A stretch of DNA of 64,000 nt, taken from sequence record DRR378314_1513; one strand, 5' to 3'. The notes below the pieces were generated by a model. That model saw only the letters and a program-made list of their open reading frames with translations. It made no database searches and was not told where the DNA came from. A program made the position numbers and the translations under genes. How positions within the stretch are numbered: the stretch's first letter is position 1; every line of letters begins with the position of its first letter. Positions 38,448 to 62,147 of the stretch are shown one piece after another.

Positions 38448-40070
38448 TCAGTCGACGTTCTCGAACTGGTTCATCGTGTTGTGGACACCGCCCGCCTTCA
38501 GCGCGCGTTCGCCGGCAACCATCTCCTTGAACGTATCGCCAAGGTCTGAGCCCACTTCGTGCTGGTGCTTCACGGCAGACACACCATTGCGGATTTCGCG
38601 GCGCTGGATGGTCTGCACATAGGCGGCCATCTTGTTCTCGCCGAAGTACCCTTTCGACAATTCGTCCATGGCGAAGGCCGTCATGTGGAAGGTTGGCAGC
38701 GTGATCAGGTTGTGGAACACGCCAGCGCGTTCGCTGATGTCATATTGGAAACGTTGCAGGCGTGCGTCAGCTTCCTTGCCGAGATCGGTATCGTCAAAGC
38801 GGGCCGACATGAGTTCCGCCTCCGGATATTCATTCTCGGAGATCTTGCCAGCCGCGATCCAGTCTGCCCGGACCTGCTTGCGCAGATTGAGGGTCCAGTT
38901 GAAGCTTGGGCTGTTGTTATAGGTCAGCTTCGCATCTGGCACGACTTCCTTGATACGGTTCACCATGCCCGCGATGATGTCGACATTCGGCGTATCAGTT
39001 TCGATCCAGAGCAGGTCTGCGCCGCCAAGCGTAAGGTTGGCGATACAATCCTCGATCACGCGCTCGGTGCCCGTTCCTTCGCGGAAGCGATAGAGGCCGT
39101 TTGGCAGACGGACTGGCTTGACCAGCTTACCATCTTTCTGCAGCGCCATCTCGCCATCCTGAAGCGGATTGGAGTCGGAGATCTCTTCGGTTTCAAGCCA
39201 TTTGATGTATTCCGAAGCCAGGTCACCCGGCCCCTGAGATACCGGAACCTTCTGGGTCAGGCCGGCGCCGAGGCTGTCTGTACGCGCGACGATCACACCA
39301 TCGTCTACACCCAGCTCCTCAAATGCCAGACGGCAGGCGCGCAGCTTCTCGATAAAGTCTTCGCGGGGAACTGTGACCTTGCCATCCTGGTGGCCACACT
39401 GCTTCGCGTCAGAGACCTGGTTCTCGATCTGGAGGCAGCACGCGCCAGCCTTGATCAGCTCCTTGGCCAGCAGATACGTCGCATGCTCGTTGCCAAAGCC
39501 AGCATCGATGTCAGCAATGATCGGAACCACATGGGTTTCGAACGTGTCGATCCGGTAAATGATCTCATCCAGGACATCCTGGCTTGCACCCGCTTCCCGG
39601 GCGGCGGCCAGTTCGCGGAACAAATCGTTCAGAGCAACTTCGTCGGCCTGACGGAGAGAGACATAAATCTCTTCGATAAGCTCTGCGACAGCCGTCTTCT
39701 CGTGCATGGACTGATCCGGCAGATGACCCCAGGTGTTACGCAGGCCAGCGACCATCCAGCCGGACAGGTACACATAGGTGCCCTTCGCCGTGCCGCGCAT
39801 ACGCTTGACAGACTTGATCATCTGTTGCGCGTGGAAGCCGGACCAGCAGCCCAGAGACTGGGTGAATTTCGAGTGGTCGGCATCATAGGCCGCCATGTCA
39901 GCTCTCATCACGCCGGCCATTTCGCGGGCAATGTCGAGATGCGTGGAGTATGTGTTCTGGATTTTCAGCTGGACGATGTCGTCTACGCTGATCCCGGCGC
40001 GCGTCACGCCGTCGGGATAACGCTTGAGCGCCTCGGCGCGCAGTTCAGAGTAAGTTGGGCGGTTGGACAT
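38448..40070 (-). CDS. aceA: Isocitrate lyase (long, Pseudomonas-type)
   Basis: TQSLGCW-GF, YLSGWMVA, LPDQSMHEKT, IIADIDAGFGN, ENQVSDAKQCGHQDGK, ADLLWIET, YNNSPSFNW. Confidence 0.95.
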   Translation of the reverse strand: MSNRPTYSELRAEALKRYPDGVTRAGISVDDIVQLKIQNTYSTHLDIAREMAGVMRADMAAYDADHSKFTQSLGCWSGFHAQQMIKSVKRMRGTAKGTYVYLSGWMVAGLRNTWGHLPDQSMHEKTAVAELIEEIYVSLRQADEVALNDLFRELAAAREAGASQDVLDEIIYRIDTFETHVVPIIADIDAGFGNEHATYLLAKELIKAGACCLQIENQVSDAKQCGHQDGKVTVPREDFIEKLRACRLAFEELGVDDGVIVARTDSLGAGLTQKVPVSQGPGDLASEYIKWLETEEISDSNPLQDGEMALQKDGKLVKPVRLPNGLYRFREGTGTERVIEDCIANLTLGGADLLWIETDTPNVDIIAGMVNRIKEVVPDAKLTYNNSPSFNWTLNLRKQVRADWIAAGKISENEYPEAELMSARFDDTDLGKEADARLQRFQYDISERAGVFHNLITLPTFHMTAFAMDELSKGYFGENKMAAYVQTIQRREIRNGVSAVKHQHEVGSDLGDTFKEMVAGERALKAGGVHNTMNQFENVD

Positions 40071-40110
40071 GGTTTTGTCTCCTTGAAACTTGGTGAAGTC
40101 AGTGTGGGGA

Positions 40111-41748
40111 TCAGGCGAGCTTTCGCAGCGCCTCGTAAGCGGGGGTTGTCAGGAAGTCTGGCAGGTCTTTGCCGGTTGCCGTTTCGGTGAAGATGTTTGC
40201 GGCAAGCTCGTAGCGGCCCTGTTCATAGGCATCTGCGCCGATGGCTTCACGGATCTTGGCGAGTTCCTCGCCGAGAATTTCAATGAACCAGTCCTGTGAG
40301 AACGAACGGGCTTCACCATTCTGCGCGATGATGCTGGCCTGATGATGCAACCACTGCCAGATCTGGCTGCGGGAGATCTCAGCTGTTGCGGCATCTTCCA
40401 TCAGATTGTGGATCGGCACAGCGCCGCGACCATTCAGCCAGGCGGCGGTGTATTCAATGCCGACGGAAATATTGGTGCGCACACCCGCCTCGGTGATGTC
40501 CCCGGTGTGCGGACGCAGAAGGTCGTCCCGACGGATCGGCGGGAAAGTCCGCTGGCTGCGTACTTGATTGCAGGCCGGCATGTGCTCGTTGAAGACTTCC
40601 ATCGCCACAGGCACGAGCGCAGGGTGAGCCACCCAAGTGCCATCATGACCCGCCTTCACTTCGCGCAGCTTGTCGGCGCGCACCTTTTCAAAGGCCGCCG
40701 TGTTTGCCGCCTCGTCATTCTTGACCGGAATCTGCGCCGCCATGCCGCCCATCGCATGGGCGCGGCGATTGTGGCACGTCTTGATCAGCAGCAAGGAATA
40801 AGCATTCAGGAATGCGCGGTCCATGCCGACCTGCGCACGGTCTGGCAGCACGTAGGCTGCGTTCTTCCGAAGCGTCTTGATGTAGGAGAAGATATAGTCC
40901 CACCGGCCACAATTGAGGCCGGCAATGTGGCGGCGGAGTTCGTAAAGGATTTCATCCATCTCGAATGCAGCCGGAAGCGTTTCGATCAGGACGGTTGCCT
41001 TGATGGAGCCTACTGGAATTCCGAGCGTTTCCTGCGCGAACTCAAAGACCTCATCCCACAGGCGCGCCTCCAGATGGCTCTCCATCTTCGGCAAGTAGTA
41101 GAAAGGCCCAAGGCCCGAGGCGTGCAGTTTCGCGCCATTGTGGAAGATGTGCAGTCCGAAATCGAACAGGCTGGCGGAGATGGGTTGGCCGTCAATGAGG
41201 AGGTGCGCCTCTTCCATGTGCCATCCGCGAGGGCGCACGATCATCACAGCGGTCTCTTCGCCGAGCGCATAGGATTTGCCAGACTTCGGGTCCGTGTAAT
41301 CCAGGCTGCCATTGGCATAATCCTGCATGTTCACCTGACCGTCGATCATGTTCCCGAAGGTCGGTGACGACGCATCCTCGAAGTCAGCCATGAACATCTT
41401 GGCGCCAGAGTTCAGCGCGTTGATCATCATCTTGCGATCAACAGGGCCCGTGATTTCCGCGCGGCGATCCTGGAGAACCGCCGGGATCGGGGCAACTTCC
41501 CAGACACCATCGCGGATTGATTTCGTTTCAGGCAGGAAATCCGGCAGCTCCCCGGCATCGAACCGCGCCTGACGTGCGCGGCGCGCAGCGAGAAGCTCAC
41601 GACGCCGGGAACCGAAACGGCGCTCAAGGCGAACCAGAAAGTCGAGCGCACCCTCGGTCAGCACCCGGTCTACGCCCTCTACCCGCTTCAGAACTTCAAT
41701 ATGGTCAGCCTCTTTGGGGGCCCGCTCCAACGCTTCGACAAAAGTCAT
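40111..41748 (-). CDS. aceB: Malate synthase A
   Basis: DRRAEITGP, NALNSGA--FMADFED, VRPRGWH, YLPKMESHLEARLW, GLNCGRWDYIFS, GHDGTWVAHP, LMEDAATAEISRSQ. Confidence 0.96.
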   Translation of the reverse strand: MTFVEALERAPKEADHIEVLKRVEGVDRVLTEGALDFLVRLERRFGSRRRELLAARRARQARFDAGELPDFLPETKSIRDGVWEVAPIPAVLQDRRAEITGPVDRKMMINALNSGAKMFMADFEDASSPTFGNMIDGQVNMQDYANGSLDYTDPKSGKSYALGEETAVMIVRPRGWHMEEAHLLIDGQPISASLFDFGLHIFHNGAKLHASGLGPFYYLPKMESHLEARLWDEVFEFAQETLGIPVGSIKATVLIETLPAAFEMDEILYELRRHIAGLNCGRWDYIFSYIKTLRKNAAYVLPDRAQVGMDRAFLNAYSLLLIKTCHNRRAHAMGGMAAQIPVKNDEAANTAAFEKVRADKLREVKAGHDGTWVAHPALVPVAMEVFNEHMPACNQVRSQRTFPPIRRDDLLRPHTGDITEAGVRTNISVGIEYTAAWLNGRGAVPIHNLMEDAATAEISRSQIWQWLHHQASIIAQNGEARSFSQDWFIEILGEELAKIREAIGADAYEQGRYELAANIFTETATGKDLPDFLTTPAYEALRKLA

Positions 41749-41840
41749 AATGTGCCTCATCAATCAAACTCGAATTGACACAACACTATTTACACTTCTT
41801 CCGAATATCGAGTATGCAATTGTTTCTATTGGGTTTTTAT

Positions 41841-41887
41841 GTTTACGATGTAAGGTAAACCCAACGGTAATTGTAAAGTTTGTAAAT
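41841..41887. promoter_or_regulatory. Candidate RamB/ScfR operator region
   Basis: GTTTAC-N8-GTAAAC inverted repeat and tandem TTGTAAA repeats in the AT-rich divergent promoter. Confidence 0.5.
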
Positions 41888-41901
41888 CTTCAGGGTATTT
41901 G

Positions 41902-43341
41902 ATGAGCCAGCGAAAAGAGAAACTCCTCATTGGCGCGAAGCTTCGACGGCTTCGACGCACGCTTGGACTGACGCAGGCCCAAATGGCCGAAGACCTCCAT
42001 GTCTCAGCCAGCTACATCAATCTGATCGAGAGCAATCAGCGCCCCGTGAGCGCGAAACTGCTCGTGTCCCTCGCACAAATCTACGATTTCGATCTGAGCG
42101 ATGTTGGCGGCGCAAGCGACGCTCGACTGGCCTCCGAACTCATGGAAGCGCTTCGCGACCCCGTTTTTGAAGCCGGACCAATTGGCAAGAATGATGTCGA
42201 AGATGTCGTCAACGCCAATCCGGACATCGCGAAGGCCTTCCTCCGTCTCTATTCGCGCCATCAAGAGATGAATATCCGGCTCTATTCGGACGCCAACCCA
42301 ATGGCAGACCGGGAAAAGGTGGAAGTGCTGGAACAGACAGATCGGAGCGTGGATTCCGTCCGCGAATATTTCCACGAAAACCGGAACTACTTCCCCGAAA
42401 TCGACGAAGCGGCGGAAGCGCTCTCAGCCGAATTGTTTCTGACCACGGATGAACCCCATACTACCCTGACAGACCGCCTGAAGAAGCAACACAATTACCA
42501 GGTCCGGATTGTCCCGGCTCATGTCATGCCAGACAGGCTACGCTATTTTGATCGGCACCATCGCAGGATCGATCTGTCAGAACTGCTCCACCAATCCGGA
42601 CGACGCTTTCAGCTGGCCGTCCAGATCGCCATGCTGGAATATGCCCCCCTTATTGAAGCGCATGTCGAGAAAGCCAAATTCCCGGATCGCAGCGCGCGAA
42701 ACCTGGCCAGCGTCAGCCTGGCAAATTACTTCGCCGCCGCGTTGCTGATGCCGTATGCGCGCTTCCTCCGTGAATGCGAAACAACGAAATATGACATTGA
42801 GCTGCTCAGCCATCGGTTCGGCGCAAGCTTTGAACAAGTCGCCCACCGCCTCACCACGCTTCAGAAACCGGATGCACGCGGCATCCCCTTCTTCTTCGTC
42901 CGAATGGACAGCGCCGGCAATGTGTCCAAGCGTTTCAGCGCGGGGCGGTTTCATTTTTCGAAATTCGGTGGCGCCTGCCCGCTCTGGAATATCCATGATT
43001 GCTTTGCGACGCCTGACCAGGTTCGCTCCCAAATCATTCAGATGCCGGACAATACGACCTATTTCTCAATCGCCCGCACGATGTCACGGTCGGAAGGCGC
43101 CTTTGACCGGCCGCCAACCAAGTACGCCATCGGCCTTGGGTGTGACATCGCCTACGCCCCCCGCCTGATATATGCGCAGACACTCAATCTGCCCGCCATG
43201 CAGGCGACGCCCATTGGAGTGAATTGCTATATGTGCGACCGGAACAATTGCCCATCCAGGGCCCACGCTCCGCTAAACAAGAAACTTGTCTTCGATACAA
43301 GATCGCGCGGTATCTCTGTCTTCAGCTTCGAGCACGACTAG
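41902..43341 (+). CDS. ramB: Short-chain fatty acyl-CoA regulator (RamB/ScfR family, XRE HTH)
   Basis: GAKLRRLR-LGLTQ, SASYINLIE-NQRP, NYFAAALLMPY, SFEQVAHRLTTLQ, GGACPLW, C--C-R--C--RA. Divergent from aceBA. Confidence 0.9.
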   Translation: MSQRKEKLLIGAKLRRLRRTLGLTQAQMAEDLHVSASYINLIESNQRPVSAKLLVSLAQIYDFDLSDVGGASDARLASELMEALRDPVFEAGPIGKNDVEDVVNANPDIAKAFLRLYSRHQEMNIRLYSDANPMADREKVEVLEQTDRSVDSVREYFHENRNYFPEIDEAAEALSAELFLTTDEPHTTLTDRLKKQHNYQVRIVPAHVMPDRLRYFDRHHRRIDLSELLHQSGRRFQLAVQIAMLEYAPLIEAHVEKAKFPDRSARNLASVSLANYFAAALLMPYARFLRECETTKYDIELLSHRFGASFEQVAHRLTTLQKPDARGIPFFFVRMDSAGNVSKRFSAGRFHFSKFGGACPLWNIHDCFATPDQVRSQIIQMPDNTTYFSIARTMSRSEGAFDRPPTKYAIGLGCDIAYAPRLIYAQTLNLPAMQATPIGVNCYMCDRNNCPSRAHAPLNKKLVFDTRSRGISVFSFEHD

Positions 43342-44233: not shown

Positions 44234-46531
44234 TCAGAACTCAAATCCGAATGTGACGAGCAATTGCCGCGGAGGGACATACTCATTGCTCACAGTTCCG
44301 CTTGAGTAAGGGTCCACGAACCGGCCCGAGATACCCTCTTCATCGCCGATATTCGTGATCGAAGCCGACACGAACCACGGCACTTCGTTCGGCTGATACT
44401 GTAAGTACGCATTCCAGAGGCTGTATGACGGCACATCATCCGCGCCAGCCGTGTTGAAAATGCGCGCCTCATACTCTCCAACATATACATTCTCGATGCG
44501 AGACGTCAGCTCACCATGATCACCAATTGGCTGGAACCAGGCCGCATACAGATTGTATGTCAGGTCAGCGAGATTTGGCGGGGTGTTGCCCTCGACCTGC
44601 ACGCCTGCAGACTGACGCGCGAGAAACCAGTCATAAGACCAGGGATATGTAGCGCCTGAATTCACCGCTTCATCTCCGGCGAGGTCAGCAAGGCGGCGAT
44701 CCAGCGCCACATAGTCAGCGGTGACCTCCCCGTCCAGCATGGCCATATTGCCGCCAAGCATAAGCTGGTCGTTGAAGGTCAGATAGCTGCCTTCCAGCTC
44801 GATACCATATGTTTCAGCTTCAGGAATGTTGCCAATGCCCCCGGCATAGGGAATCGGATCCTCTTCGATGAACTGCATGTTTTCATACTGATTGAAAAAG
44901 ACCGAGGCGTTGAGCGTTGCGCGGCCATCAAGGAACGTGTTCTTGGAGCCGAACTCGATCGCCTCCACAGTCTCCTCATCATATGTCGAAGAGACAACAA
45001 GTGCGCCTGACGTTCCGCCATTCAGTCCGCCCGGCTTGTAGCCGCGTGACCAGCTCGCATACACCATCGAGTCTTCGGATATATCGTAGTCAAGCCCGAC
45101 TTTCCCGGTCCATGTCTGTGTTGCAAACGAACTGGCGGTCGGCGTTGAATAGTACGAAGCGCCCTCGCCGTCATACTTGTCGTCATTGTAACGCGCGCCG
45201 ACTGTTGCGCTCAGGTTTTCCATCAGCGGGATTGTCGCCTGGAAGAACGGAGCAACCGACTCACGATTGACGGTCGAAATGTTTTCATAGGCCAGGTTCG
45301 AAGGAATTTCCGCCGGAGTGGTGTCACGAGGCAGAACGGGGAGGCCCGGAATGGAGGTGACGCCAAGCTCCCGATATTCGACCACATATTGAGCCGAGTC
45401 CGTGTTCGAATAGAATACGCCTGCAATCCAGTCGATCCCGGATTCCGGAAGTGAACTGATTGTCAGTTCTTCCATGAAGGTTTCGGCTTCTGTAGCCCAG
45501 GTCGCGACATGATCGTAGCCGCCATAGGTCGCCAGATCGAGGCGATCGGCGTCAAACGACTGGTCATGCGACATGTCCTGATAACTCGTCACAGACTTCA
45601 ACGTCGCGAAAGGAAGCTCGTACGACACGTTGAGCGTGGCAAGTTCCGACTTCAGCTTGAACTTTGCGGGAAAGTCCTGCGTGACTTCGCGAATATCAGG
45701 ATTGGGGTCCTCAATATTCTTCAGTGCTCCGCCATTATGCTTGTCATTGTATAGCGTATAGGAAAGCGTTGTGGACAGCTTGTCCGTTGGCTCCCACAAG
45801 GCGGCGAGGCGATAATGCTCATTGTCAGCGTCATCCAGCTCATAACCGCCATCAATGCTGGTGGCCGTCGCATAGCCATCATGAGACGTTTGCTGGATTG
45901 ACCCGCGGATCGCCGCTGTTTCACCAATCGGCACATTATAGGAGGCAAAACCCTGAACGTAGTTGTAATCGCCCAGAGTTGCCTTGAACGTGCCCTTCGA
46001 CTCTCCAAGCGTTGGCTGGTTCGTGATGACGTTGATCGACCCACCGGTTGAACTCTGTCCGAACACAGTGCCCTGCGGGCCGCGAAGGACTTCGATGCGG
46101 TCTACATCAAAGAACCCCATATTGAGCGCGATGGAATTTGGCAGGAACGCGCCGTCGACATGAAACGACACACCCGGAATTGTCGCGAAGTTCTCTGGAG
46201 TCTGCTGGCCTACACCGCGAATGGTGACGATGCGCTCAGACCCGCCACTTTTCGTGATCATGAGGCCGGGAACATACCCATTCAGCTGGCTCGGATCCGT
46301 GATGCCCGCCTGCTCCAGGATATCCCCGGTGATAGCGCTCAGCGCGATTGGCGCATCCTGAAGAGTGGTTTCCCGCTTCTCTCCGTACACTGTTATCTGG
46401 TTCATGTTGCGGATGTCATCTTCATCACCCGCCGCATCATCGGCAAATGCAACACCACCGTAAACCAGCGCAACACTCAGCGCCGCAACAGCAGCGCCAC
46501 ACTTCATAAAACTTCTTTTGTTCCGACCCAT
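44234..46531 (-). CDS. TonB-dependent receptor
   Basis: Signal peptide, ITVYGEKRETTLQDAPIA, RIEVLRGPQGTVFG, YASWSRGYKPGG, C-terminal Phe. Confidence 0.95.
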   Translation of the reverse strand: MGRNKRSFMKCGAAVAALSVALVYGGVAFADDAAGDEDDIRNMNQITVYGEKRETTLQDAPIALSAITGDILEQAGITDPSQLNGYVPGLMITKSGGSERIVTIRGVGQQTPENFATIPGVSFHVDGAFLPNSIALNMGFFDVDRIEVLRGPQGTVFGQSSTGGSINVITNQPTLGESKGTFKATLGDYNYVQGFASYNVPIGETAAIRGSIQQTSHDGYATATSIDGGYELDDADNEHYRLAALWEPTDKLSTTLSYTLYNDKHNGGALKNIEDPNPDIREVTQDFPAKFKLKSELATLNVSYELPFATLKSVTSYQDMSHDQSFDADRLDLATYGGYDHVATWATEAETFMEELTISSLPESGIDWIAGVFYSNTDSAQYVVEYRELGVTSIPGLPVLPRDTTPAEIPSNLAYENISTVNRESVAPFFQATIPLMENLSATVGARYNDDKYDGEGASYYSTPTASSFATQTWTGKVGLDYDISEDSMVYASWSRGYKPGGLNGGTSGALVVSSTYDEETVEAIEFGSKNTFLDGRATLNASVFFNQYENMQFIEEDPIPYAGGIGNIPEAETYGIELEGSYLTFNDQLMLGGNMAMLDGEVTADYVALDRRLADLAGDEAVNSGATYPWSYDWFLARQSAGVQVEGNTPPNLADLTYNLYAAWFQPIGDHGELTSRIENVYVGEYEARIFNTAGADDVPSYSLWNAYLQYQPNEVPWFVSASITNIGDEEGISGRFVDPYSSGTVSNEYVPPRQLLVTFGFEF

Positions 46532-46604
46532 GACATTACCCCTCAAGCTGCAGAAAATCACAAACTTTGCGATATCTCACGCTAGATTGGGGTTCTCGTC
46601 CTGA

Positions 46605-46641
46605 CTTGATTTGGAGCGCCAAAATAGTTGCAAAAGCTGAA
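46605..46641 (-). promoter_or_regulatory. Tandem 22-bp-period AraC-type site upstream of the TonB receptor
   Basis: CTTG-atttgga-GCGCC-aaaata-GTTG. Shared with six other upstream regions. Confidence 0.65.
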
Positions 46642-48099: not shown

Positions 48100-48762
48100 T
48101 TACCCTTCCAGGGTGTCCAGGACTGTCTGCGTGTCAGCCAGCAAAGCGCAATTCTTCTCCAATGCCATGAGCGCACCGACATGAAGTATCTCTTCATAAG
48201 CCGCGCACGCATCAGAAACGACGACGACGTTGAAATTGTGATGAAAGGCAGACCGAGCGGTCTGGTCGACACAGCAATCCGTCGTCACGCCCGCCATCAA
48301 CACAGTATCAATGCCGCGCGCCTTCAATTCCGCGTCGAGTTCCGTGTCATGAAACCCATCGAACAGAACCTTCGCTATATCGAGATCACCATCCTCCGGG
48401 ACAAGCTGATAATAGTCTGACCCCGCCTCATCCGCACGGCATATCGCGTGCTGGCCCGGCTTGCCGCGCCAAGCATAGAGGTTCTTCAAGGCGTCCGTGT
48501 CTGTTTCATCCCGGGTCACGACCTTCAGGAAGCAGATGGTTCCGCCTTTTTGCTTGAGCACCTCACGAAGACGAGCCATCTGGGCCATTGCGGTGTGCGC
48601 TGGGCGAAGATCCACGCCCGCCTGCCCGATCACGCCATCCGGCGAAACGAAATCCACCTGAACATCGACCAGGACCAAAGCGGTACGTGCAGGATCAAGT
48701 ATCTCGCTGAGCAACTCGGACCCGGCATGCGGCAAGTCAGATACAGACGGCAAAGCTGTCAT
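48100..48762 (-). CDS. Isochorismatase-family cysteine hydrolase (RutB-like)
   Basis: TALVLVDVQVDF, IAKVLFDGF, AGVTTDCCVDQTAR. Abuts the RutA-like gene. Confidence 0.85.
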   Translation of the reverse strand: MTALPSVSDLPHAGSELLSEILDPARTALVLVDVQVDFVSPDGVIGQAGVDLRPAHTAMAQMARLREVLKQKGGTICFLKVVTRDETDTDALKNLYAWRGKPGQHAICRADEAGSDYYQLVPEDGDLDIAKVLFDGFHDTELDAELKARGIDTVLMAGVTTDCCVDQTARSAFHHNFNVVVVSDACAAYEEILHVGALMALEKNCALLADTQTVLDTLEG

Positions 48763-49881
48763 CTATGCCGCCCCGGCGAGAGATGGAAACTTTGCGCGCA
48801 ACTTTGGAAGCACTTCTTCCGCAAATTTCGGCATTCCCTCAATATAGTCGGGGAAGATCAGCATGAGACCATCCAGACCCGACACTTCCAATTGCTGGGA
48901 CAGACGCTCCACAACTGTATCAGGCGATCCTGCAACGTGCGGCGACATGAAGGATGATCTGGCCTTTTTCACGAACGCATTCTCCTTGCCGATTTCGGCA
49001 TCCAGGAACCCGTAGGCGCGCATCATTCCGCGCAGGGCTTCTTCATCGAGACCATCCCGATAGTGTTGCGCCGTCGCTTGAGCCTCTTCATCTGTATCGC
49101 CGAGGACAACGGTCATCATCGCGTACGTGCGGATGTACCGCCCCATTTCGGCGGCGATGCCTTTCACCTTGTTGCTGGCAGCGGCCAGCACCTCAGGAAC
49201 GTCGCCAGACAAGAAGATCGCGTCCATTTCGTTCGCGCTGAATCGCATTCCCTTTTCAGACGTACCCGCACAAACAAGGAATGGCTTTTTCGATGGCTTG
49301 GGATTCGAGACGCAGTCATCCAGTTGGAAATACTTGCCATCCATTGTGACAGAGGGCTCGGTCCACAAGCCCTTGATGGCCTTGATCCACTCGTCAGCGA
49401 GGTCGTATCGGGCATCGTGGTCAACATCGTCCGGCCACATACCCATTTGGGAGAACTCGCCCTTATAGGAACCCGTGACCACATTGAGCCCTGCCCGTCC
49501 GTTCGATACCTGATCCAGCGTAGCAATCATTTTCGCGACCGTTCCCGGATTTTGCAGGATCGTGTGGACAGTGGTCCAGACCTTCACGGTTTTGGTGACT
49601 TCTGCCAGCGCTGCCATCGTGACCGTCGCGTCGAGTGTCGCATCCCACTGTTTGGTTTCGCCGCCATATCCGCGATACTTTGCCATGGACATGATGAAGT
49701 CGTATCCCAGCTCTTCTGCCAAAACCGCGACCTTGCGGTTGTAGGCATATGACCCATCGAGCTCCGGCTTGTTTCTCGACAGGATCCACCCCCCATTGGC
49801 GATCGGCATGAAGATGCCCAGATCCTTGCCTCCGGTATCGGATGGCAAGTCAAACTTGGTTGGAGAAACTGGCTCTGACAT
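48763..49881 (-). CDS. Luciferase-like flavin monooxygenase, RutA (pyrimidine monooxygenase)-like
   Basis: LGIFMPIANGGWILS, AEELGYDFIMSMAKYRGYGG, AKMIATLDQVSNGR-GLN-VTG, EFSQMGMWP, CAGTS--GM-F. Confidence 0.83.
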   Translation of the reverse strand: MSEPVSPTKFDLPSDTGGKDLGIFMPIANGGWILSRNKPELDGSYAYNRKVAVLAEELGYDFIMSMAKYRGYGGETKQWDATLDATVTMAALAEVTKTVKVWTTVHTILQNPGTVAKMIATLDQVSNGRAGLNVVTGSYKGEFSQMGMWPDDVDHDARYDLADEWIKAIKGLWTEPSVTMDGKYFQLDDCVSNPKPSKKPFLVCAGTSEKGMRFSANEMDAIFLSGDVPEVLAAASNKVKGIAAEMGRYIRTYAMMTVVLGDTDEEAQATAQHYRDGLDEEALRGMMRAYGFLDAEIGKENAFVKKARSSFMSPHVAGSPDTVVERLSQQLEVSGLDGLMLIFPDYIEGMPKFAEEVLPKLRAKFPSLAGAA

Positions 49882-49936
49882 GTCTTCAATTCCCTCATTT
49901 CGATACCGGACTATCACCAAGGCAAGCCATCCGGTT

Positions 49937-49974
49937 CTTGATTTCTCGCGCCTCAACTATTGATCGGCGAACAT
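49937..49974 (-). promoter_or_regulatory. Tandem AraC-type site upstream of the RutA-like gene
   Basis: CTTG-atttctc-GCGCC-tcaact-ATTG. Confidence 0.65.
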
Positions 49975-55123: not shown

Positions 55124-56161
55124 CTAGGCGCGACCTTGGGCAAACTCTTGATACTCGCCCCATAATTTGTTGACCTCAGCCTCATCCTGGGCGCGGTTTG
55201 CCAGCCCTGTCCGCCGATGCTCGCGCGGCGACAAACCAAACTGCTCCCGAAAGCTGCGACTGAAATGAGCTGAACTGCTGAAGCCCCAGCGAAACGCCAC
55301 TTCGGAAATAGATTCCTGCGCATGGAGCGGGCTGATCAGGTCCGCATGACACCGCTCCAGTCGGCGCTTCTTGAGATATCCGCTGAAATTGTGCCCATCC
55401 GCAGCGAACAGGCGTTGCAGATAACGGGGAGAAACACCAACCTCATCTGCCGCCTTCACAATCGTCAGATCAGGATCCCACAGGAGCGTTTCCAATGTCT
55501 GTTGGATTCTGTGGAGATGGGCCGCTCTTGCGCCCTGCGCGCCACCAAGCGATCGCGTGTCTGCAATTTCAAGCAGCTTGCTCGTCAGCAACTCGATCAA
55601 GGCAAGCTCAACCGGGGGCAGGTCCTGAGTCGAGATGTCGCCAAGCTCATCGGCCATGACGAGAAGCATGCCCAGCAGCATTCGTCCAACACCAACGCTG
55701 CCGTCAATTGTGCCGGATTTGTAATGGGTCGGCGCAATCAGTCGGCCACCCAACGCCACATCCGGAATGCGCACAAACAGGATCGCATTATCTTCGCTCA
55801 CTTCCAGACGGGAGTCGTGTCGCGTCGCGCCGTACACGATCATATTCTGCGTCACGTCTACAGCCACGCCGTCAGAACTGAAGCGCGCATTTCCTTTCAG
55901 CAGGACAAGCAACCATATGCCCGCGCCCTGCTCCAACTCACGCCCATCAATGACTTGGCGTCCAGACTCGATGCGTGCGAATTGCAAGCCCAGCGCCGAA
56001 GACTGAATGGTCATACGCCCGTCAATTGGTTGCCCTTCCGGATCTGACACGAAAGGCAGTCGCAACCGCCGCATGGCGTTGGCCCAGGCCGCATTCCTCT
56101 GCGCGGCAGGCACTGATCGTGTCTGGAACCGCCAGGTCGTGGGGTGTTCTGAAGGGTGCAC
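55124..56161 (-). CDS. AraC family transcriptional regulator (FeaR/NitR-like)
   Basis: N-terminal FQTRSVP--QR-AAW cupin domain. DPDL...VSPRYLQRLF, RRLERC, ISEVAFRWGF-SSAHFSR-FR--FG-SPRE. Confidence 0.92.
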   Translation of the reverse strand: MHPSEHPTTWRFQTRSVPAAQRNAAWANAMRRLRLPFVSDPEGQPIDGRMTIQSSALGLQFARIESGRQVIDGRELEQGAGIWLLVLLKGNARFSSDGVAVDVTQNMIVYGATRHDSRLEVSEDNAILFVRIPDVALGGRLIAPTHYKSGTIDGSVGVGRMLLGMLLVMADELGDISTQDLPPVELALIELLTSKLLEIADTRSLGGAQGARAAHLHRIQQTLETLLWDPDLTIVKAADEVGVSPRYLQRLFAADGHNFSGYLKKRRLERCHADLISPLHAQESISEVAFRWGFSSSAHFSRSFREQFGLSPREHRRTGLANRAQDEAEVNKLWGEYQEFAQGRA

Positions 56162-56175
56162 GTGCCTGCTCCGCC

Positions 56176-57381
56176 CTATTCGGCAGCAACCGCAGCCCCA
56201 ACAGCAGACGGATCGCGCCTATCCCATTCCGCCAGATAGCGGTCGACAAGCCATTCATTGAATTGCGCTTGCGCGCCTTCTTGCCAGGAATACCGCCCAC
56301 GTTTTGCAAAGCGGGAGCGCAGGCCCAGTTGAACCATCTCGTCCACATGCCAATCCTGAGCGATGATATGAGATGTCGAATTCATGATCATCTCCATCTT
56401 GTGCTCGTAGGCCTCATCTTCCATCGCGCCGGGCGCCACAAGTACGCCCGTGTCCATGTAATGCGTTTCAGGACTGTCAGGCCGGATGATCAGATAGATG
56501 ACCATGTCGCTGGTCATGACCAGTGACAGGCTGGGCGGGATATTTGCAAACGTCATCCGGTTTCGGGCTTCATCGGACAGTCCCGGAAAGACCGGCAATA
56601 CCGCCTTCTGTGTGGGATTAAAGCTCGCGTCAGGATGAAGCGTACCGTTGAACCGCAGATAGCCGGCGGCTCCTTTCGGCGCATCGGGGAAACTTGCCTG
56701 TTCTGACGGCACAAAATCATGCAACGGGCCGTGGTGCAGGCGGCTGGCGTGATAGCCATCATTGTTGTTCTCGAACATGACTTTCCAGTTCCACATGAGG
56801 CGTGGCGCCGGGTCAGGTCGGGGCCCTTCCGCATTGGCCAGGTCGTAACCACTAATCGCCTCCTGAACATGCGTCAGCCGGGGCGCCAGTGGCGCAGCAT
56901 TCTGATCGAAATTGATGAAGATGAACCCTTCCCACACCTCAACCTTGAAATTCGGTAGTCCATTTGCCTTGCGGTCGAATTCGCAAGTCTTGTTCATCGC
57001 TGGCGCGCCAACCAGATCGCCATCCAGCGAGTAGCTCCAATGATGATAGGGGCACACAAATCCACGCGCATTTCCGCTGCCTTCGGCAACCAGCATCGCG
57101 CGGTGCTGGCAAACAGACGACATTGCCTTCAATTCGCCTTTGCGATTTCTGGCCACGACAATTGGTTCGTTTACGGTGGAGGTGGTGAAATAGTCGCCCG
57201 GCTCTTTCACCCATTCTTCCCGGCCGACACACAACCAGTCATGCGTAAAGAGGGCTTCCTTCTCAAACTCGTAGAAATTGGCGTCCGTATAGCATTCTGG
57301 CGGAAGCGTTTCAGCTTCGAGAACATCTCCTTTTGAAGATGCCAGAGACTGGATGAACTCTTCGGTGATGGTGATCGGCAT
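56176..57381 (-). CDS. Rieske non-heme iron oxygenase alpha subunit (choline monooxygenase/CntA-like group)
   Basis: CQHR...CPYH Rieske ligands, NWK---EN--DGYH----H mononuclear Fe motif, QD---E-VQ-GL-S. Confidence 0.9.
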   Translation of the reverse strand: MPITITEEFIQSLASSKGDVLEAETLPPECYTDANFYEFEKEALFTHDWLCVGREEWVKEPGDYFTTSTVNEPIVVARNRKGELKAMSSVCQHRAMLVAEGSGNARGFVCPYHHWSYSLDGDLVGAPAMNKTCEFDRKANGLPNFKVEVWEGFIFINFDQNAAPLAPRLTHVQEAISGYDLANAEGPRPDPAPRLMWNWKVMFENNNDGYHASRLHHGPLHDFVPSEQASFPDAPKGAAGYLRFNGTLHPDASFNPTQKAVLPVFPGLSDEARNRMTFANIPPSLSLVMTSDMVIYLIIRPDSPETHYMDTGVLVAPGAMEDEAYEHKMEMIMNSTSHIIAQDWHVDEMVQLGLRSRFAKRGRYSWQEGAQAQFNEWLVDRYLAEWDRRDPSAVGAAVAAE

Positions 57382-57503: not shown

Positions 57504-59828
57504 TTACGCCGTGAACAATTCCTTGCGGATAATGGCATGGACTCCCCAGTTCCCATTGACGACCTGAGTAATCCCGAAATCCACGCCGACAGAGAGCAGC
57601 GAGATCGCCTCATCTTCATCAAGGTCGCGTGCGGTCATCAGGAAACGACGCGCTTTGCGGAACGCATCCCGCATGGCCAGATCAATTGAAGACTTCTTGT
57701 AGATGTCACTCTGTGCAGATGCCCCAAGCTCTTTGAGATAGTTCGGATGGCTAAAGCCGAAGATCACCCATTCGTCCCGGGTTTCCAGAAGAGGATAATC
57801 GAGATCCCGGATATGCCCTCTCTTGTCGCTCGCCCGATGCAGAATAGGCTGGATAAGCGCTGTCATTGAACACTCGATTGCCGTCCCACACAGCTCCGAG
57901 TCTCCTTGCGACGCATGCGGATCGCCAAGGGACAACAGCGCACCCGCCACGCCGACAGGGAGAAACAGGCTGGACCCCGGCGCAATACGCCAATTGTCGA
58001 GATTGCCTCCGAAATTGCCTGGCGGAATGGAGTCGACCAGTTTGGATTGCGGCGGAGCAACACCAATCACTCCAAAATGCGGACGCACCGGAATCTCGAT
58101 GTTGCGGAGGACATCGTAGTTTTTCTTGATCGTGCTCGTGTCCACAGGCAAGCCGGGATAATCGTACAATTCATGCACAATACCAAACGGATCTGTCTGA
58201 GGGGTCCAGCGATAATTGTAGACAGCACGTGCACAGGACCGCCCCATCTCGCTCTCGACTTCATAAATGGTAATGACTTCGCGTTGTTTCGGTTCCGTCA
58301 GAAGATCATTATACTGAAATCCCCAATACGCTGCAGCATTGCTGCCGAATGACTGCCCCGCATATTTCGGGTTCCCGCTGGTCCGCGGCTTCAGTTCCAG
58401 AATACGGATCTCGACAATGTCATTCGGCTCTGCCCCCGCGATCTCGATCGGGCCAGTGCAGATATGAACACCAAAGCCCTCACCCGCGCCGCGCCCTGTT
58501 GAGGAAGACGAATCCAGAGCGCCCGCCCCTCGGCGGTTGATGGTTTTACCCTCCGGAGTCCAGCGATAGATATCCTCAATCGCCGGGTCTCCCATGACCA
58601 TACGCTCATGGTCGTCATTCGCATGATGCGTCAGGGTTTCAACCGTCACATAATCCCCGGACTCCACAGTCAGAACGGGCTTCAGGGAACTGCTGAAATG
58701 CCCCCAATGAATGGTTTCAGGCGTAACCGGCAAATAGTGATGCCGGGCTCCATGCTGGACCGGAACGCGCGGCAGATCCGATACGTCAGAAGTTTCCTGT
58801 TCGATGTCATCCAGCATCTCGTCAGCCTGGGATTCGATCGCCTGATCTTTCGCTGTCGGCGGCCGCCCCCGTTGCGGGGCTTCGGCTTGCGCTTCTTCCT
58901 CTTGCGGTGCCCTGCGATACTCACGCGGGCTCATCCCGTACTGTTCTCGAAACGCTCGGCTGAAAGACGCGCTATCGTTGAAGCCCCACTGAAACAATAT
59001 GTCCGAGATGGAACGCTGTGCATGTAACGGGCTACGAAGATCCAGCCGGCACCGCTCCAACCGCCTGAGTTTCACAAAATGACCGAAACTATCCCCAACA
59101 GATTCGAACAATTTCTGAAGGTAGCGCGGTGAGATATTGTGTTCCTTGGCGACCTGATGAAGATTCAAGTCTGGATCACTCAAACGCATCTCGATGGTCT
59201 GGAAAATTCGCTCCAGCAACGCCGCCCGGACGCCGGCCGCGCCGCCCAACTCTTTGGTAGAAGCTTCGCTCATAAGCGCCGTGGAAATGAATTCAGGCAG
59301 CGCCACTTCAATGGGACGCATCTGGTCATCGTCGACATCCATGATCGTGTCGGCGACAGATCGCAACAATCCTGACAACATGCGCCCAACGCCTGTTTCA
59401 GAGACAAGATTGGAGATGTCAGCTTGCGGCTTTGAACGCAGACGCAGCGCCGGATGCGTGACCGGCACCTGAACCATCAAGAAGCGATTGTCTCGCTTGA
59501 AATCGAGCGTGACATCCAGATCGCCAATCCCATAAACGATGTCGCCCTCGGAGACATCGATAGAGTTGGTTTCCGTTTTGGCGACGAGGTCACCTTCCAG
59601 CAGCATTATCAACCAGAATTGGGAGGGCCCCTGCGACAGATCCAGACGCATGACGTGTTCAGTAGATGTAATGCGGACAAATGTGAAATCCTGCGCACTT
59701 CGGTAGCTGACCAGCTCGCCATACAGCTCTCCCTCATGCTCCAGAAGCTCCATGGAAAATCGCTGCAATGCGAAATGCCAGGCGTCCTTCCGCTGCTCTT
59801 TCGGATACGCATTGGTTGTAAACTGCAC
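57504..59828 (-). CDS. Fusion of an AraC regulator (cupin + double HTH) and an acetamidase/formamidase (FmdA/AmdA) domain
   Basis: Single 774-aa ORF. Residues ~1-307 are AraC (ISPRYLQKLF, WGFNDSASFSRAFR). Acidic linker follows. Residues ~363-774 are amidase (TIHWG, HICTGP, GGNLD, GDPHASQGDSELCGTAIE). Confidence 0.88.
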   Translation of the reverse strand: MQFTTNAYPKEQRKDAWHFALQRFSMELLEHEGELYGELVSYRSAQDFTFVRITSTEHVMRLDLSQGPSQFWLIMLLEGDLVAKTETNSIDVSEGDIVYGIGDLDVTLDFKRDNRFLMVQVPVTHPALRLRSKPQADISNLVSETGVGRMLSGLLRSVADTIMDVDDDQMRPIEVALPEFISTALMSEASTKELGGAAGVRAALLERIFQTIEMRLSDPDLNLHQVAKEHNISPRYLQKLFESVGDSFGHFVKLRRLERCRLDLRSPLHAQRSISDILFQWGFNDSASFSRAFREQYGMSPREYRRAPQEEEAQAEAPQRGRPPTAKDQAIESQADEMLDDIEQETSDVSDLPRVPVQHGARHHYLPVTPETIHWGHFSSSLKPVLTVESGDYVTVETLTHHANDDHERMVMGDPAIEDIYRWTPEGKTINRRGAGALDSSSSTGRGAGEGFGVHICTGPIEIAGAEPNDIVEIRILELKPRTSGNPKYAGQSFGSNAAAYWGFQYNDLLTEPKQREVITIYEVESEMGRSCARAVYNYRWTPQTDPFGIVHELYDYPGLPVDTSTIKKNYDVLRNIEIPVRPHFGVIGVAPPQSKLVDSIPPGNFGGNLDNWRIAPGSSLFLPVGVAGALLSLGDPHASQGDSELCGTAIECSMTALIQPILHRASDKRGHIRDLDYPLLETRDEWVIFGFSHPNYLKELGASAQSDIYKKSSIDLAMRDAFRKARRFLMTARDLDEDEAISLLSVGVDFGITQVVNGNWGVHAIIRKELFTA

Positions 59829-60026: not shown

Positions 60027-61118
60027 TCAATCCGGATCTTTCACAACACCCTTCTCAGGGAAGATGTTGCGATCAATCTTGACGTGAATTCCCTGCGTCC
60101 CATCAACGACTTGCGTGATCCCGAAATCCGTCGCGACACTCATCAGGGAATAGGCGTCATTGCGGCTCAGATCCTGATGCTCGGTAAGCAAGTGGAGCAT
60201 ATCCAGGGACGCATTCTTCATCGCCTTGTTCAGGTCTTCATCGAACCCATGCACGATCCAGTGGTCAGGCGTCTCAAGCAGGGGTGACGGGAATTTGAAA
60301 TCCTTGCGCAAGACAATCTGGAACAATACATCCAGCGATGCCTCAATGGCTGTGCCACTGATCTCGCCATCTCCCTGGCTGACGTGTGGGTCGCCGATCG
60401 AGAACAGGCCACCGTTTACCTGAACGGGATAATACATCGTCGCGCCCGCGCCGATGCGCCAATTGTCAATATTGCCGCCATGCAGTCCCGGCGGAATGGT
60501 GCTGACGCGTTCATCAACGGCTGGCGCCACCCCAGCCGTGCCAAGATGGGGCCGGGCCGGCACACGAACGCCGGTCAGGGCGGGCTCTTTGTCACAATCA
60601 GGGCAATGCGTGATTGTCCCCGGAATCAGATACTTGCCTTCAAAATCATAGGCGTACAGCGCATGAGCCGTATTGGAATTCGGGTCCAGCTCGTAGATTG
60701 TTACGCGCTCTTTCTCGCCGAACTCCTGGTAGAGATGCCCCCAATTGGCGGCAAGATTCGAGCCATAATTGCATCTTGGCACCATGCGAAAATACCGAAC
60801 TTCCAGCATATCGCCTGGCTCTGCGTCTTCGACATAGATCGGCCCGGTCATGATATGCACACCGGGAGCGCGGTCTTCTGGCTTCACCCCTTCCCAGATT
60901 GCCTTGACGGTTTCATCCATCATCAGATCCGGCGCGTCGCCCGCATGGTGCGTAATTGCTTCGGCCTGAATGAGGTCGCCGCTCTTGACGTGCAAGGCTG
61001 GCTTTATGTTTGGATGGAAGTATCCCCAGTGAACCGTTTCAGGCGTCGCCTTCAGATGATGCAGATTTTCGGGCTGGACCTGAACCTTGCTTTTCCGGGT
61101 GTCTTCAATCAACGCCAT
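60027..61118 (-). CDS. Acetamidase/formamidase (FmdA/AmdA) family protein
   Basis: TVHWGYF, HIMTGPIYV-DAEPGD, GGNIDN, GDPHVSQGDGEISGTAIE, DFGITQVVD. AGGAG RBS. Confidence 0.9.
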   Translation of the reverse strand: MALIEDTRKSKVQVQPENLHHLKATPETVHWGYFHPNIKPALHVKSGDLIQAEAITHHAGDAPDLMMDETVKAIWEGVKPEDRAPGVHIMTGPIYVEDAEPGDMLEVRYFRMVPRCNYGSNLAANWGHLYQEFGEKERVTIYELDPNSNTAHALYAYDFEGKYLIPGTITHCPDCDKEPALTGVRVPARPHLGTAGVAPAVDERVSTIPPGLHGGNIDNWRIGAGATMYYPVQVNGGLFSIGDPHVSQGDGEISGTAIEASLDVLFQIVLRKDFKFPSPLLETPDHWIVHGFDEDLNKAMKNASLDMLHLLTEHQDLSRNDAYSLMSVATDFGITQVVDGTQGIHVKIDRNIFPEKGVVKDPD

Positions 61119-61177
61119 ACCTAACTCCTTGAACCAAACGCCGTGTACGAAATCTGGCTGCAAGGCCGGCACTTGGT

Positions 61178-61215
61178 CTTGTTCAAATGCGCCCAACTAG
61201 TTGCGCATGCTTGTC
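61178..61215 (-). promoter_or_regulatory. Tandem AraC-type site upstream of the amidase
   Basis: CTTG-ttcaaat-GCGCC-caacta-GTTG. Confidence 0.65.
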
Positions 61216-61322
61216 ACCCCCCTCAAATGGAGAGCAGGTTCAAGTTTGCGGTCGTCCACCAACAAGACAATCGTCACCATGTCGCCTACCAATCCCTTTT
61301 GGATCAGTATCGGGAACAGACT

Positions 61323-62147
61323 ATGCCAGAGACACCATCCACCAGAATGCCCACCTTGTTCATTCCGCATGGCGGAGGTCCCTGCTTCTTCATGGACTGG
61401 AGTCTGATGGGTGGCCCTGCCGATACGTGGGACCAGACCGCTGCATGGCTGAAGAGTATTCCGGAAAGTCTGCCCGAAAAGCCAAAAGCGCTTCTGGTGA
61501 TTTCGGCGCATTGGGAAGAAGACGAGTTCACGCTCTCGACAGCGTCGAAACCCGGCATGATCTTTGACTATTACGGCTTTCCACCGCACACTTACGAGTT
61601 GAACTATCCGGCCCCGGGCGCCCCCGAACTGGCAAAGCGAGTGTCACAGCTCATCACGCAACAAGGGTTGCCGGAGCCGCGCAACACGGATCGCGGCTTT
61701 GACCATGGCGTGTTCGTGCCGCTTCTGGTGGCATTTCCAGATGCGGACATCCCAATCCTAACTTTGTCGCTGACCAAGGATCTGTCACCGGAAAAACATC
61801 TTATCCTTGGCGAGGCGCTTTCTGCCCTAAGAGATGAAGGTGTGCTGATTATCGGCAGCGGCATGAGTTACCACAATATGCGCGCGTTTCGGACACCCGC
61901 GGCAACCGCCCCGTCAGAAGAATTTGACCACTGGCTGACGGACACAATCGAATCCGATTCAGGAGACGCGCGATGGAATCGCCTGAGCAATTGGCTGTCA
62001 GCCCCCCAGGCACGCAATTCTCACCCGAGGGAAGAACACTTCATTCCGCTAATGATTGCGGCCGGCGCAGCTCGCGATGATGCAGGGCGCAAGATTTTCT
62101 CGGACAATGTGATGAACGCCACAGTCTCCGCCTTCCAGTTCGGCTGA
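61323..62147 (+). CDS. Class III extradiol ring-cleavage dioxygenase (LigB/DODA/YgiD family)
   Basis: PTLFIPHGGGP, VISAHW, DYYGFP, RGFDHG, IGSGMSYHN, HPREEHFIPL. Confidence 0.92.
   Translation: MPETPSTRMPTLFIPHGGGPCFFMDWSLMGGPADTWDQTAAWLKSIPESLPEKPKALLVISAHWEEDEFTLSTASKPGMIFDYYGFPPHTYELNYPAPGAPELAKRVSQLITQQGLPEPRNTDRGFDHGVFVPLLVAFPDADIPILTLSLTKDLSPEKHLILGEALSALRDEGVLIIGSGMSYHNMRAFRTPAATAPSEEFDHWLTDTIESDSGDARWNRLSNWLSAPQARNSHPREEHFIPLMIAAGAARDDAGRKIFSDNVMNATVSAFQFG

Follow-up and report, generated by a model that had tools for sequence, protein, structure and literature searches.

An AraC regulator fused to an amidase domain

The window analyzed here, a stretch of 64,000 nucleotides from sequence record DRR378314_1513, carries on its minus strand a gene for an AraC-type regulator that runs on, within the same frame, into an acetamidase/formamidase domain of the FmdA/AmdA family. 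This fusion gene is preceded by a gene for a free-standing FmdA/AmdA amidase and followed by genes for a Rieske oxygenase and a second AraC regulator; a TonB-dependent receptor gene lies further away (Table 1). A first-pass annotation, made from the sequence alone, had described the fusion as one uninterrupted open reading frame (ORF), and the 774-residue frame is indeed free of internal stop codons. The start codon has a GGAG sequence 8 nt upstream, which is kept in four other Hyphomonas loci.

Table 1. Positions of the fusion gene, its parts and associated features in the window
Feature	Position	Strand	Basis or remark
Whole fusion gene	57504..59828	-	774 codons plus stop, GTG start; ORF scan, full-length relatives
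N-terminal cupin-like AraC effector/dimerization domain, residues 1-195	59244..59828	-	PF14525 below cut-off, AlphaFold2 beta-sandwich, Foldseek
AraC/XylS double helix-turn-helix DNA-binding domain, residues 196-310	58899..59243	-	PF12833, PF00165
Disordered, net-acidic linker, residues 311-360	58749..58898	-	predicted local distance difference test (pLDDT) score <50 over 311-359
RGRP motif R320-P323, start of linker	58860..58871	-	alignment A1, survey of 142 fusions
FmdA/AmdA amidase domain, residues 361-774	57507..58748	-	PF03069, PDB 3b9t, conserved residues
Free-standing FmdA/AmdA amidase gene, directly upstream of the fusion	60027..61118	-	PF03069, 116.7 bits; probable ATG at 61118
Candidate operator GCAACTAGTTGGGCGC-N7-CAAG, 27 bp, 60-86 nt upstream of the free-standing amidase start	61178..61204	-
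Rieske oxygenase alpha-subunit gene, 122 nt downstream of the fusion	56176..57381	-	Pfam Rieske, Ring_hydroxyl_A
Second FeaR-like AraC regulator without amidase domain	55124..56161	-	Pfam and NCBIfam matches
Second candidate-operator copy, 44-70 nt upstream of the TonB-dependent receptor gene	46605..46631	-
TonB-dependent receptor gene, probable regulon member	44234..46561	-	Pfam Plug, TonB_dep_Rec_b-barrel

Pfam searches and an AlphaFold2 model agree with the proposed three-part layout of a FeaR-like AraC regulator, an acidic linker and an FmdA/AmdA domain. Two of the three Pfam families named in the annotation score above their cut-offs in the window protein, HTH_18 (PF12833; residues 227-306, 73.2 bits, cut-off 33.6) and FmdA_AmdA (PF03069; residues 454-758, 88.5 bits, cut-off 27), while the third, AraC_binding_2 (PF14525; residues 43-166), stays below its own with 19.4 bits against 27; according to precomputed annotation, it is present in most full-length relatives. 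The DNA-binding part also matches HTH_AraC (PF00165; residues 264-306, 49.3 bits, cut-off 26.6), and its sequence matches in the PDB include Rob, SoxS, RamA and MarA. In the AlphaFold2 model, built on 40 relatives (mean pLDDT 75.9, predicted template modeling score (pTM) 0.53), a cupin-like sandwich is confidently resolved, along with a helical DNA-binding domain and the amidase domain. The N-terminal domain is modeled as a cupin-like beta-sandwich with pLDDT values of 82-94, and on its own resembles the cupins 2pyt and 3bcw in Foldseek searches. The designation “FeaR-like” stands as a description of resemblance: the FeaR model (NF007243) is the best NCBIfam match, but its 119.1 bits fall short of the cut-off of 199, so that orthology is not implied.

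The linker had been estimated at about 55 residues, which is about right. Residues ∼311-360 are acidic, residues 311-359 are predicted to be disordered (pLDDT 25-35), and in a survey of 142 fusions the length of the linker varies between 22 and 84 amino acids with a median of 55. At its beginning, R320 and G321 are invariant among 40 relatives, and the pattern RG[RK]P was found in 96 of the 142 fusions. The RGRP motif looks like the core of an AT-hook and might touch the DNA minor groove beside the helix-turn-helix (HTH) domain.

The fusion is a genuine, single protein-coding ORF that is conserved in other genomes, as is borne out by a protein collection, by genome loci and by plasmids. The best 120 relatives in a collection of 5.8 billion proteins are all single chains of 744-802 amino acids containing both PF12833 and PF03069. 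They share 62-91% identity with the window protein, at a coverage of 100% in 119 cases and 97% in one, and derive from Sphingomonas, Novosphingobium, Sphingobium, Asticcacaulis, Hyphococcus, Altererythrobacter and metagenomes. In a set of representatives with a clustering threshold of 50% identity, we found five further full-length clusters at 45-50% identity and a shorter variant of 665 amino acids at 39%. A full-length match is present in nine of the ten genome loci retrieved, with 90-99% identity in Hyphomonas and 64-65% in Brevundimonas, Hyphococcus and Caulobacter. Plasmids or chromids carry full-length copies as well, both in the Betaproteobacteria Variovorax, Caballeronia and Paraburkholderia (∼50% identity) and in Sinorhizobium and Rhizobium (43-45%). 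The distribution is patchy: in an even sampling of the class, 2 of 301 genomes contain a full-length copy, and in a sample at the level of the order the fusion occurs in 5 of 201 genomes (3 of 15 from the same genus), none of them with an internal stop. Automatic database names for these proteins include “acetamidase/formamidase family protein”, “AraC family with acetamidase/formamidase activity” and “acetamidase/formamidase/AraC-like DNA-binding protein”.

These more than one hundred independent full-length relatives speak strongly against the view that the fusion is an artefact of assembly or sequencing, the result of a recently lost stop codon, or the source of two products because the amidase is translated separately from a methionine in the linker. 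The linker does contain an in-frame ATG (Met337, 58820-58818), which the first-pass annotation had pointed out as a possible internal start. That suggestion found no support, since no Shine-Dalgarno-like sequence precedes this codon and Met337 is missing even in a protein with 91% identity (P0001); a methionine anywhere in this part of the linker occurs in only 31 of the 142 fusions. Moreover, a metatranscriptome contig (58436-58987) spans the junction without indels in any run, although the library may hold DNA; such a contig carries no information on the protein, and stretches of the gene without contig cover have no meaning. We therefore regard an artefact or two separate products as extremely improbable, and this explanation as largely refuted.

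No lineage was seen in which the orthologues are consistently split into two genes, an outcome that the annotation had envisaged, and only a single broken copy was encountered. This copy, on a plasmid of R. johnstonii (L031, 6280-8689), is annotated as a hypothetical protein of 173 amino acids and an “acetamidase/formamidase family protein” of 612 amino acids, and its N-terminal domain is probably broken. In a quick maximum-likelihood tree of 44 sequences, all 22 fused amidase domains lie on one side of a branch with a Shimodaira-Hasegawa-like approximate likelihood ratio support of 86, the fused rows having been picked in the knowledge that they were fused and the close free-standing rows numbering only 11. 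The nearest neighbors of the fused domains are free-standing proteins similar to 3b9t. A single origin is the simplest reading of this branching pattern, and the fusion may thus have arisen once.

Conserved residues and relatives of the amidase domain

All four motifs named in the first-pass annotation are present in the translation (GGNLD at residues 607-611, GDPH at 635-638, GDSE at 642-645 and TAIE at 649-652), and they align likewise in the solved structures 2ii1, 3tkk, 2f4l, 5ubu and 2wkn, which like 3b9t are among the structure matches to the fold of this family. An alignment of the fused domain with 18 free-standing relatives (35-64% identical) yielded 20 invariant columns: D414, H455, G459, P460, A466, D470, P580, G586, P603, G607, G608, N609, D611, G618, D636, H638, G642, E645, E652 and E682 in the numbering of the fusion. 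The window protein retains all 20 of them, in agreement with an amidase that had been called apparently intact. The same is true for 19 of 24 diverse other fusions and, in a larger set of 141 fusions with 640 or more amino acids, for 123.

The 18 exceptions in the larger set comprise P0079 and P0082 as isolated cases, P0140, which falls into a cluster with a eukaryotic protein and is perhaps not this kind of fusion, and three groups with lineage-consistent changes. In the P0121 cluster (four members), N609S, D636A/N and E645Q are found, two members having H455Q in addition. H455Q and G618D mark the P0124 cluster (eight members). The three members of the P0141 cluster (P0141, P0304 and P0307) belong to the 665-residue AraC-amidase variant, in which the GGN.D block and several conserved residues are lacking, and likely represent a pseudo-enzyme form of the fusion. 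All three degenerate lineages are still fused to the AraC part. They suggest that the regulator can do without catalysis in some lineages, and the conserved residues suggest that in most lineages the domain still hydrolyzes its ligand.

The amidase domain is the best-conserved part of the fusion. Compared with the window protein, the fusions show 55-76% identity in the amidase domain, 36-86% in the HTH domain, 15-52% in the N-terminal domain and 7-46% in the linker; for fusions outside the clade of eight that includes the window protein, the values are 55-66% for the amidase domain versus 36-57% for the HTH domain. Because synonymous divergence is saturated between the available Hyphomonas species (>2 or undefined), we used nonsynonymous divergence (dN) alone. 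In comparison with three Hyphomonas species, dN amounts to 0.03 for the amidase domain, 0.04-0.06 for the AraC parts and 0.39-0.46 for the linker. All three folded parts are under strong purifying selection.

Outside the clade of eight, the amidase domain is more conserved than its DNA-binding partner, as one would expect if it were a working enzyme, and every invariant residue is kept in the window protein and in most relatives. The fused amidase could be active and transcription could be coupled to turnover, the enzyme either making the ligand of the cupin domain or consuming the inducer; we rate such coupling as possible but somewhat unlikely. In its explicit form, the protein would be a trigger enzyme, a term defined in the consulted excerpt of a review as a catalytically active protein that also regulates genes (PMC6524683): the product of the reaction (acid or amine/ammonia), locally concentrated, would serve as ligand of the cupin domain, or turnover would destroy the inducer and make the response self-limiting. 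The purifying selection on the cupin domain itself (dN 0.04-0.06) fits this scenario. It is less easily reconciled with the three lineages of four, eight and three members that remain fused in spite of altered or lost conserved residues, and with the low identity of the cupin domain (15-30%, versus 55-66% for the amidase), which would be odd if the cupin read the product of a conserved reaction. On balance, we consider a trigger enzyme of this kind unlikely. If transcription were coupled to turnover, the fusion would be a flux sensor for amide catabolism and the lineages with altered residues would be natural “sensor-only” derivatives.

The long, disordered and fast-evolving linker, together with a model that gives no confident packing between the domains, would also suit two independent halves, that is, an ordinary catabolic amidase tethered to a regulator for co-expression or stoichiometry without allosteric cross-talk. 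A docking prediction of residues 1-310 against the amidase domain (residues 355-774), performed without controls, gave a score of 0.00, which counts neither for nor against docking. Against independent halves, Alpha- and Betaproteobacteria alike have preserved the fusion, possibly from one origin, a tethered extra enzyme would be redundant next to the separate amidase gene that is usually found alongside, and fused lineages with altered conserved residues persist. We therefore judge a purely passive tether to be improbable.

With respect to the substrate, the formamidase FmdA equivalog (NF045496) reaches only 48.1 bits against a cut-off of 500, and formamide should therefore not be assumed. 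As to the four motifs, which the first-pass annotation regarded as a metal site, a formamidase of the family is called “bi-zinc containing” in an excerpt of one report (PMC4602302), and the excerpt consulted of another, on the related gamma-lactamase 2WKN, refers to the mechanism of the family as “elusive” (PMC5353710). Our literature searches turned up no description of the FmdA/AmdA active site.

The closest solved relative is PDB 3B9T, a predicted acetamidase/formamidase of Methylobacillus flagellatus from the same subfamily, which matches residues 351-772 of the fusion with an E-value of 1e-179. Foldseek superimposes it on the C-terminal domain with a TM score of 0.86, normalized to the target, at 58-59% identity. 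It shares the motifs of the fusion including GDSE, where more distant relatives have GDGE. 3B9T is a structural-genomics entry, and we found no functional study of it. The chain goes under the name “Twin-arginine translocation pathway signal protein”. The protein is free-standing and has a leader; the amidase domain of the fusion, in contrast, is cytoplasmic and located behind a DNA-binding module. Other free-standing proteins with 57-65% identity to the fused domain likewise begin with a twin-arginine leader of the type ERRxFLK...AQT (P0126, P0137, P0138, P0175, P0216, P0248, the protein of locus L013 and the neighbor in Sinorhizobium). The closest free-standing amidases are thus probably periplasmic, and the position of their leader is taken by the regulator and the linker in the fusion. 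In P0126, P0137, P0175, P0216, P0248 and the L013 protein, the leader is preceded by a cysteine-containing N-terminal stretch, MCxGDDxxCPxFxxH.

Gene neighborhood, a candidate operator and a possible mode of action

The free-standing amidase encoded upstream of the fusion is 36% identical to the fused domain, and its ATG is preceded by a conserved AAGGAG ribosome-binding site. Orthologues of this gene adjoin the fusion in loci L001-L007, L023 and L026. More generally, all Hyphomonas loci (L001-L005) have a free-standing amidase gene within ∼3 kb, as do 11 of the 14 loci from other genera. Two kinds of partner amidase can be distinguished, one ∼37% identical to the fused domain, like the neighbor in the window, and a sister type with 55-61% identity.

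Such a pairing of paralogues, with 55-61% identity in eight cases, would be in line with a role of the amidase domain mainly in oligomerization or partner binding: the domain could multimerize the regulator, or it could combine with the free-standing paralogue into mixed oligomers, through which the enzyme would sequester or release the regulator. Relatives have been crystallized with four chains per entry, and the Methylophilus enzyme is reportedly a homotrimer. Against this stand the low identity of the partner in the window (36%) and the twin-arginine leader of the neighbor in Sinorhizobium and R. etli, which should place that protein in the periplasm; oligomerization alone would, moreover, not require conserved pocket residues. 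We regard this role as quite improbable.

In more distant loci, the deposited annotation connects the fusion with transport and hydrolysis. Three Rhizobiaceae plasmids (Neorhizobium, R. tumorigenes and R. johnstonii) share the gene order ATP-binding cassette (ABC) binding protein, ABC permease/ATPase, acetamidase, fusion and RidA. On a Caballeronia plasmid (L024, 1-4175), ABC and acetamidase genes are followed by genes for nitrile hydratase (nthA, nthB and a GTP-binding accessory protein), all divergent from the fusion gene, which suggests a nitrile-to-amide-to-acid pathway under the fusion regulator. In Paraburkholderia, an amidase gene precedes the fusion beside genes for dihydropyrimidinase and FmdB. 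The theme of the neighborhood across loci is amide uptake and hydrolysis.

The Rieske oxygenase gene adjoins the fusion only in Hyphomonas, and its best NCBIfam match is GbcA-like with 132 bits, below the cut-off. The second AraC regulator, whose gene starts 14 nt past the Rieske gene, shares 42% identity with residues 2-317 of the fusion and is encoded in every Hyphomonas locus. Homologues of the TonB-dependent receptor (41-42% identity) are encoded beside the fusion gene in L006, L008 and L009, each with a candidate site upstream.

A scan of the window for promoters and terminators returned sites no commoner than in shuffled sequence. Upstream of the free-standing amidase gene, we identified a candidate operator, the GCAACTAGTTGGGCGC block of which (61189-61204) is conserved between the window and four further loci of Hyphomonas; the pattern matches in six of six Hyphomonas loci. 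A second copy of GCAACTAGTTGGGCGC with two mismatches and in the same orientation precedes the receptor gene (46616-46631), and CAAG follows both copies after 7 nt. Allowing up to three mismatches, GCAACTAGTTGGGCGC gives three matches in the window versus 0.51 expected by chance. The composite pattern GCAANNANTNNGGCGC-N7-CAAG with at most one mismatch gives two matches versus 0.05 expected, and none of 100 shuffled sequences contained two. The 3.6-Mb nearest genome (G001) contains exactly these two copies of the 16-base form and no match to the reversed control. Phylogenetic footprinting shows the receptor-side copy to be kept in two other Hyphomonas species, in which the sequence upstream of it diverges. 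Outside this genus, an exact match to the pattern lies upstream of the receptor homologue beside the fusion in Caulobacter (L008, L009 and L034), and a match with two mismatches in the corresponding position in Brevundimonas (L006).

Both promoters share a second element, TTGTTGGTG, the spacing of which to the main site differs by ∼13 nt between them. The 13-mer CGCAAACTTGAAC, which was also considered, was dropped, as its 21 matches in the window versus 19.7 expected are no more than chance would give. The ORF of a LigB-type dioxygenase (61143-62147, plus strand) as listed overlaps the region upstream of the amidase gene. Its Pfam match begins only at residue 80, and the methionine at residue 61 (∼61323) is more likely to be the start. 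With this start, a divergent promoter region of ∼200 bp would result, holding the candidate operator.

Considering the domains, the neighborhood and the candidate sites, we favor, with moderate confidence, the interpretation of the fusion protein as an amide-responsive one-component activator, in which the amidase-derived domain would serve as ligand-recognition module for the amide handled by its neighbors. The AraC module, consisting of the cupin-like domain and the double HTH, would bind promoter DNA at sites such as the candidate operator, and the flexible acidic linker would tether it to the cytoplasmic FmdA/AmdA domain. This domain, which stems from the very type of enzyme under the regulator's control, would recognize the amide that the products of the neighboring genes import and hydrolyze. 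It would bind the inducer and probably also turn it over, and its occupancy would alter the activity of the AraC module. The shared site would be bound by the fusion rather than by the second AraC regulator nearby, and the genes switched on would be those for amide breakdown and uptake in the neighborhood, such as the free-standing amidase and the TonB-dependent receptor.

Several observations weigh against this interpretation. That every conserved residue is retained would suit a working enzyme no less than a mere sensor, and at a pTM of 0.53 the AlphaFold2 model gives no confident arrangement of the domains relative to each other. In three loci (two of Caulobacter and one of Variovorax), there is no free-standing amidase gene within 6-7 kb. 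The operator pattern was refined on sites that were later recovered with it in the window, and the Caulobacter site initially came up at four mismatches, a level at which chance matches are common. Hyphococcus, Novosphingobium, Betaproteobacteria and the more distant loci examined yielded no copy of the candidate operator. Finally, the second FeaR-like regulator could be the binder of the candidate site in Hyphomonas, and even if the fusion binds there, this regulator may share the operator or compete for it.

Comparison with known regulators and further genes of the window

Each part of the protein is an ordinary member of its family, AraC/XylS or FmdA_AmdA, and their combination appears in databases under automatic names only. 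The AraC part has the cupin-like N-terminal domain and double HTH also seen in FeaR, CuxR, ToxT and Rns, and Foldseek aligns it with CuxR (5nla), ToxT and Rns over 272-307 columns; these regulators, unlike the fusion, lack a C-terminal enzyme domain. Additional domains are known from other AraC-type proteins. Ada combines a methyltransferase with an AraC HTH, Rob and Btr carry an effector domain C-terminal to the HTH, and proteins of the GbdR/FtrA/GlxA type have an N-terminal domain similar to DJ-1/PfpI amidotransferases in front of it. The NCBIfam models of all these families match the fusion weakly and in the HTH only. In contrast to them, the fusion consists of a complete two-domain AraC regulator and a third domain of another fold, FmdA/AmdA, in which the conserved residues are kept.

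Enzymatic activity and gene regulation also reside in one protein in PutA, BirA, PepA and GabR/MocR; in the fusion, this combination is putative. PutA, BirA and GabR are trigger enzymes or enzyme-regulator fusions with other DNA-binding folds, and much has been learned from these whole-enzyme sensors, as from Ada, about the coupling of catalysis to transcription. The first-pass annotation knew of no characterized example of the present architecture, and neither the literature on AraC-acetamidase fusions nor that on trigger enzymes with AraC domains yielded one, as far as titles and abstracts reveal. The fusion family would represent a new and widespread case of a whole-enzyme sensor, from which one might learn in what way enzymes turn into receptors. 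It would be a handy model for this purpose, with its possible single origin, a paralogous free enzyme next door in most members, lineages with an apparently degenerate pocket and two candidate target promoters, and it may be a source of parts for amide-responsive biosensors.

The fusion gene is part of a wider island that encodes SBF-like and major facilitator superfamily transporters, the LigB-type dioxygenase, TauD-like, RutA-like and RutB-like enzymes and the TonB-dependent receptor. NCBIfam scans of the neighboring genes gave only matches below the cut-offs (RutA/RutB-like, ribokinase-like and TauD-like) and named no substrate. The gene for the RutA-like flavin monooxygenase adjoins that for the RutB-like hydrolase of the isochorismatase family (48100-49956, minus strand), both below the equivalog cut-offs; the pair gives a hint of ring-opening of a cyclic amide or ureide in the island. 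Further away (38448-43341), isocitrate lyase and malate synthase genes are located next to a divergent regulator of the ScfR type (HTH, IrrE-like and ScfRs domains), forming an ordinary glyoxylate-shunt module.

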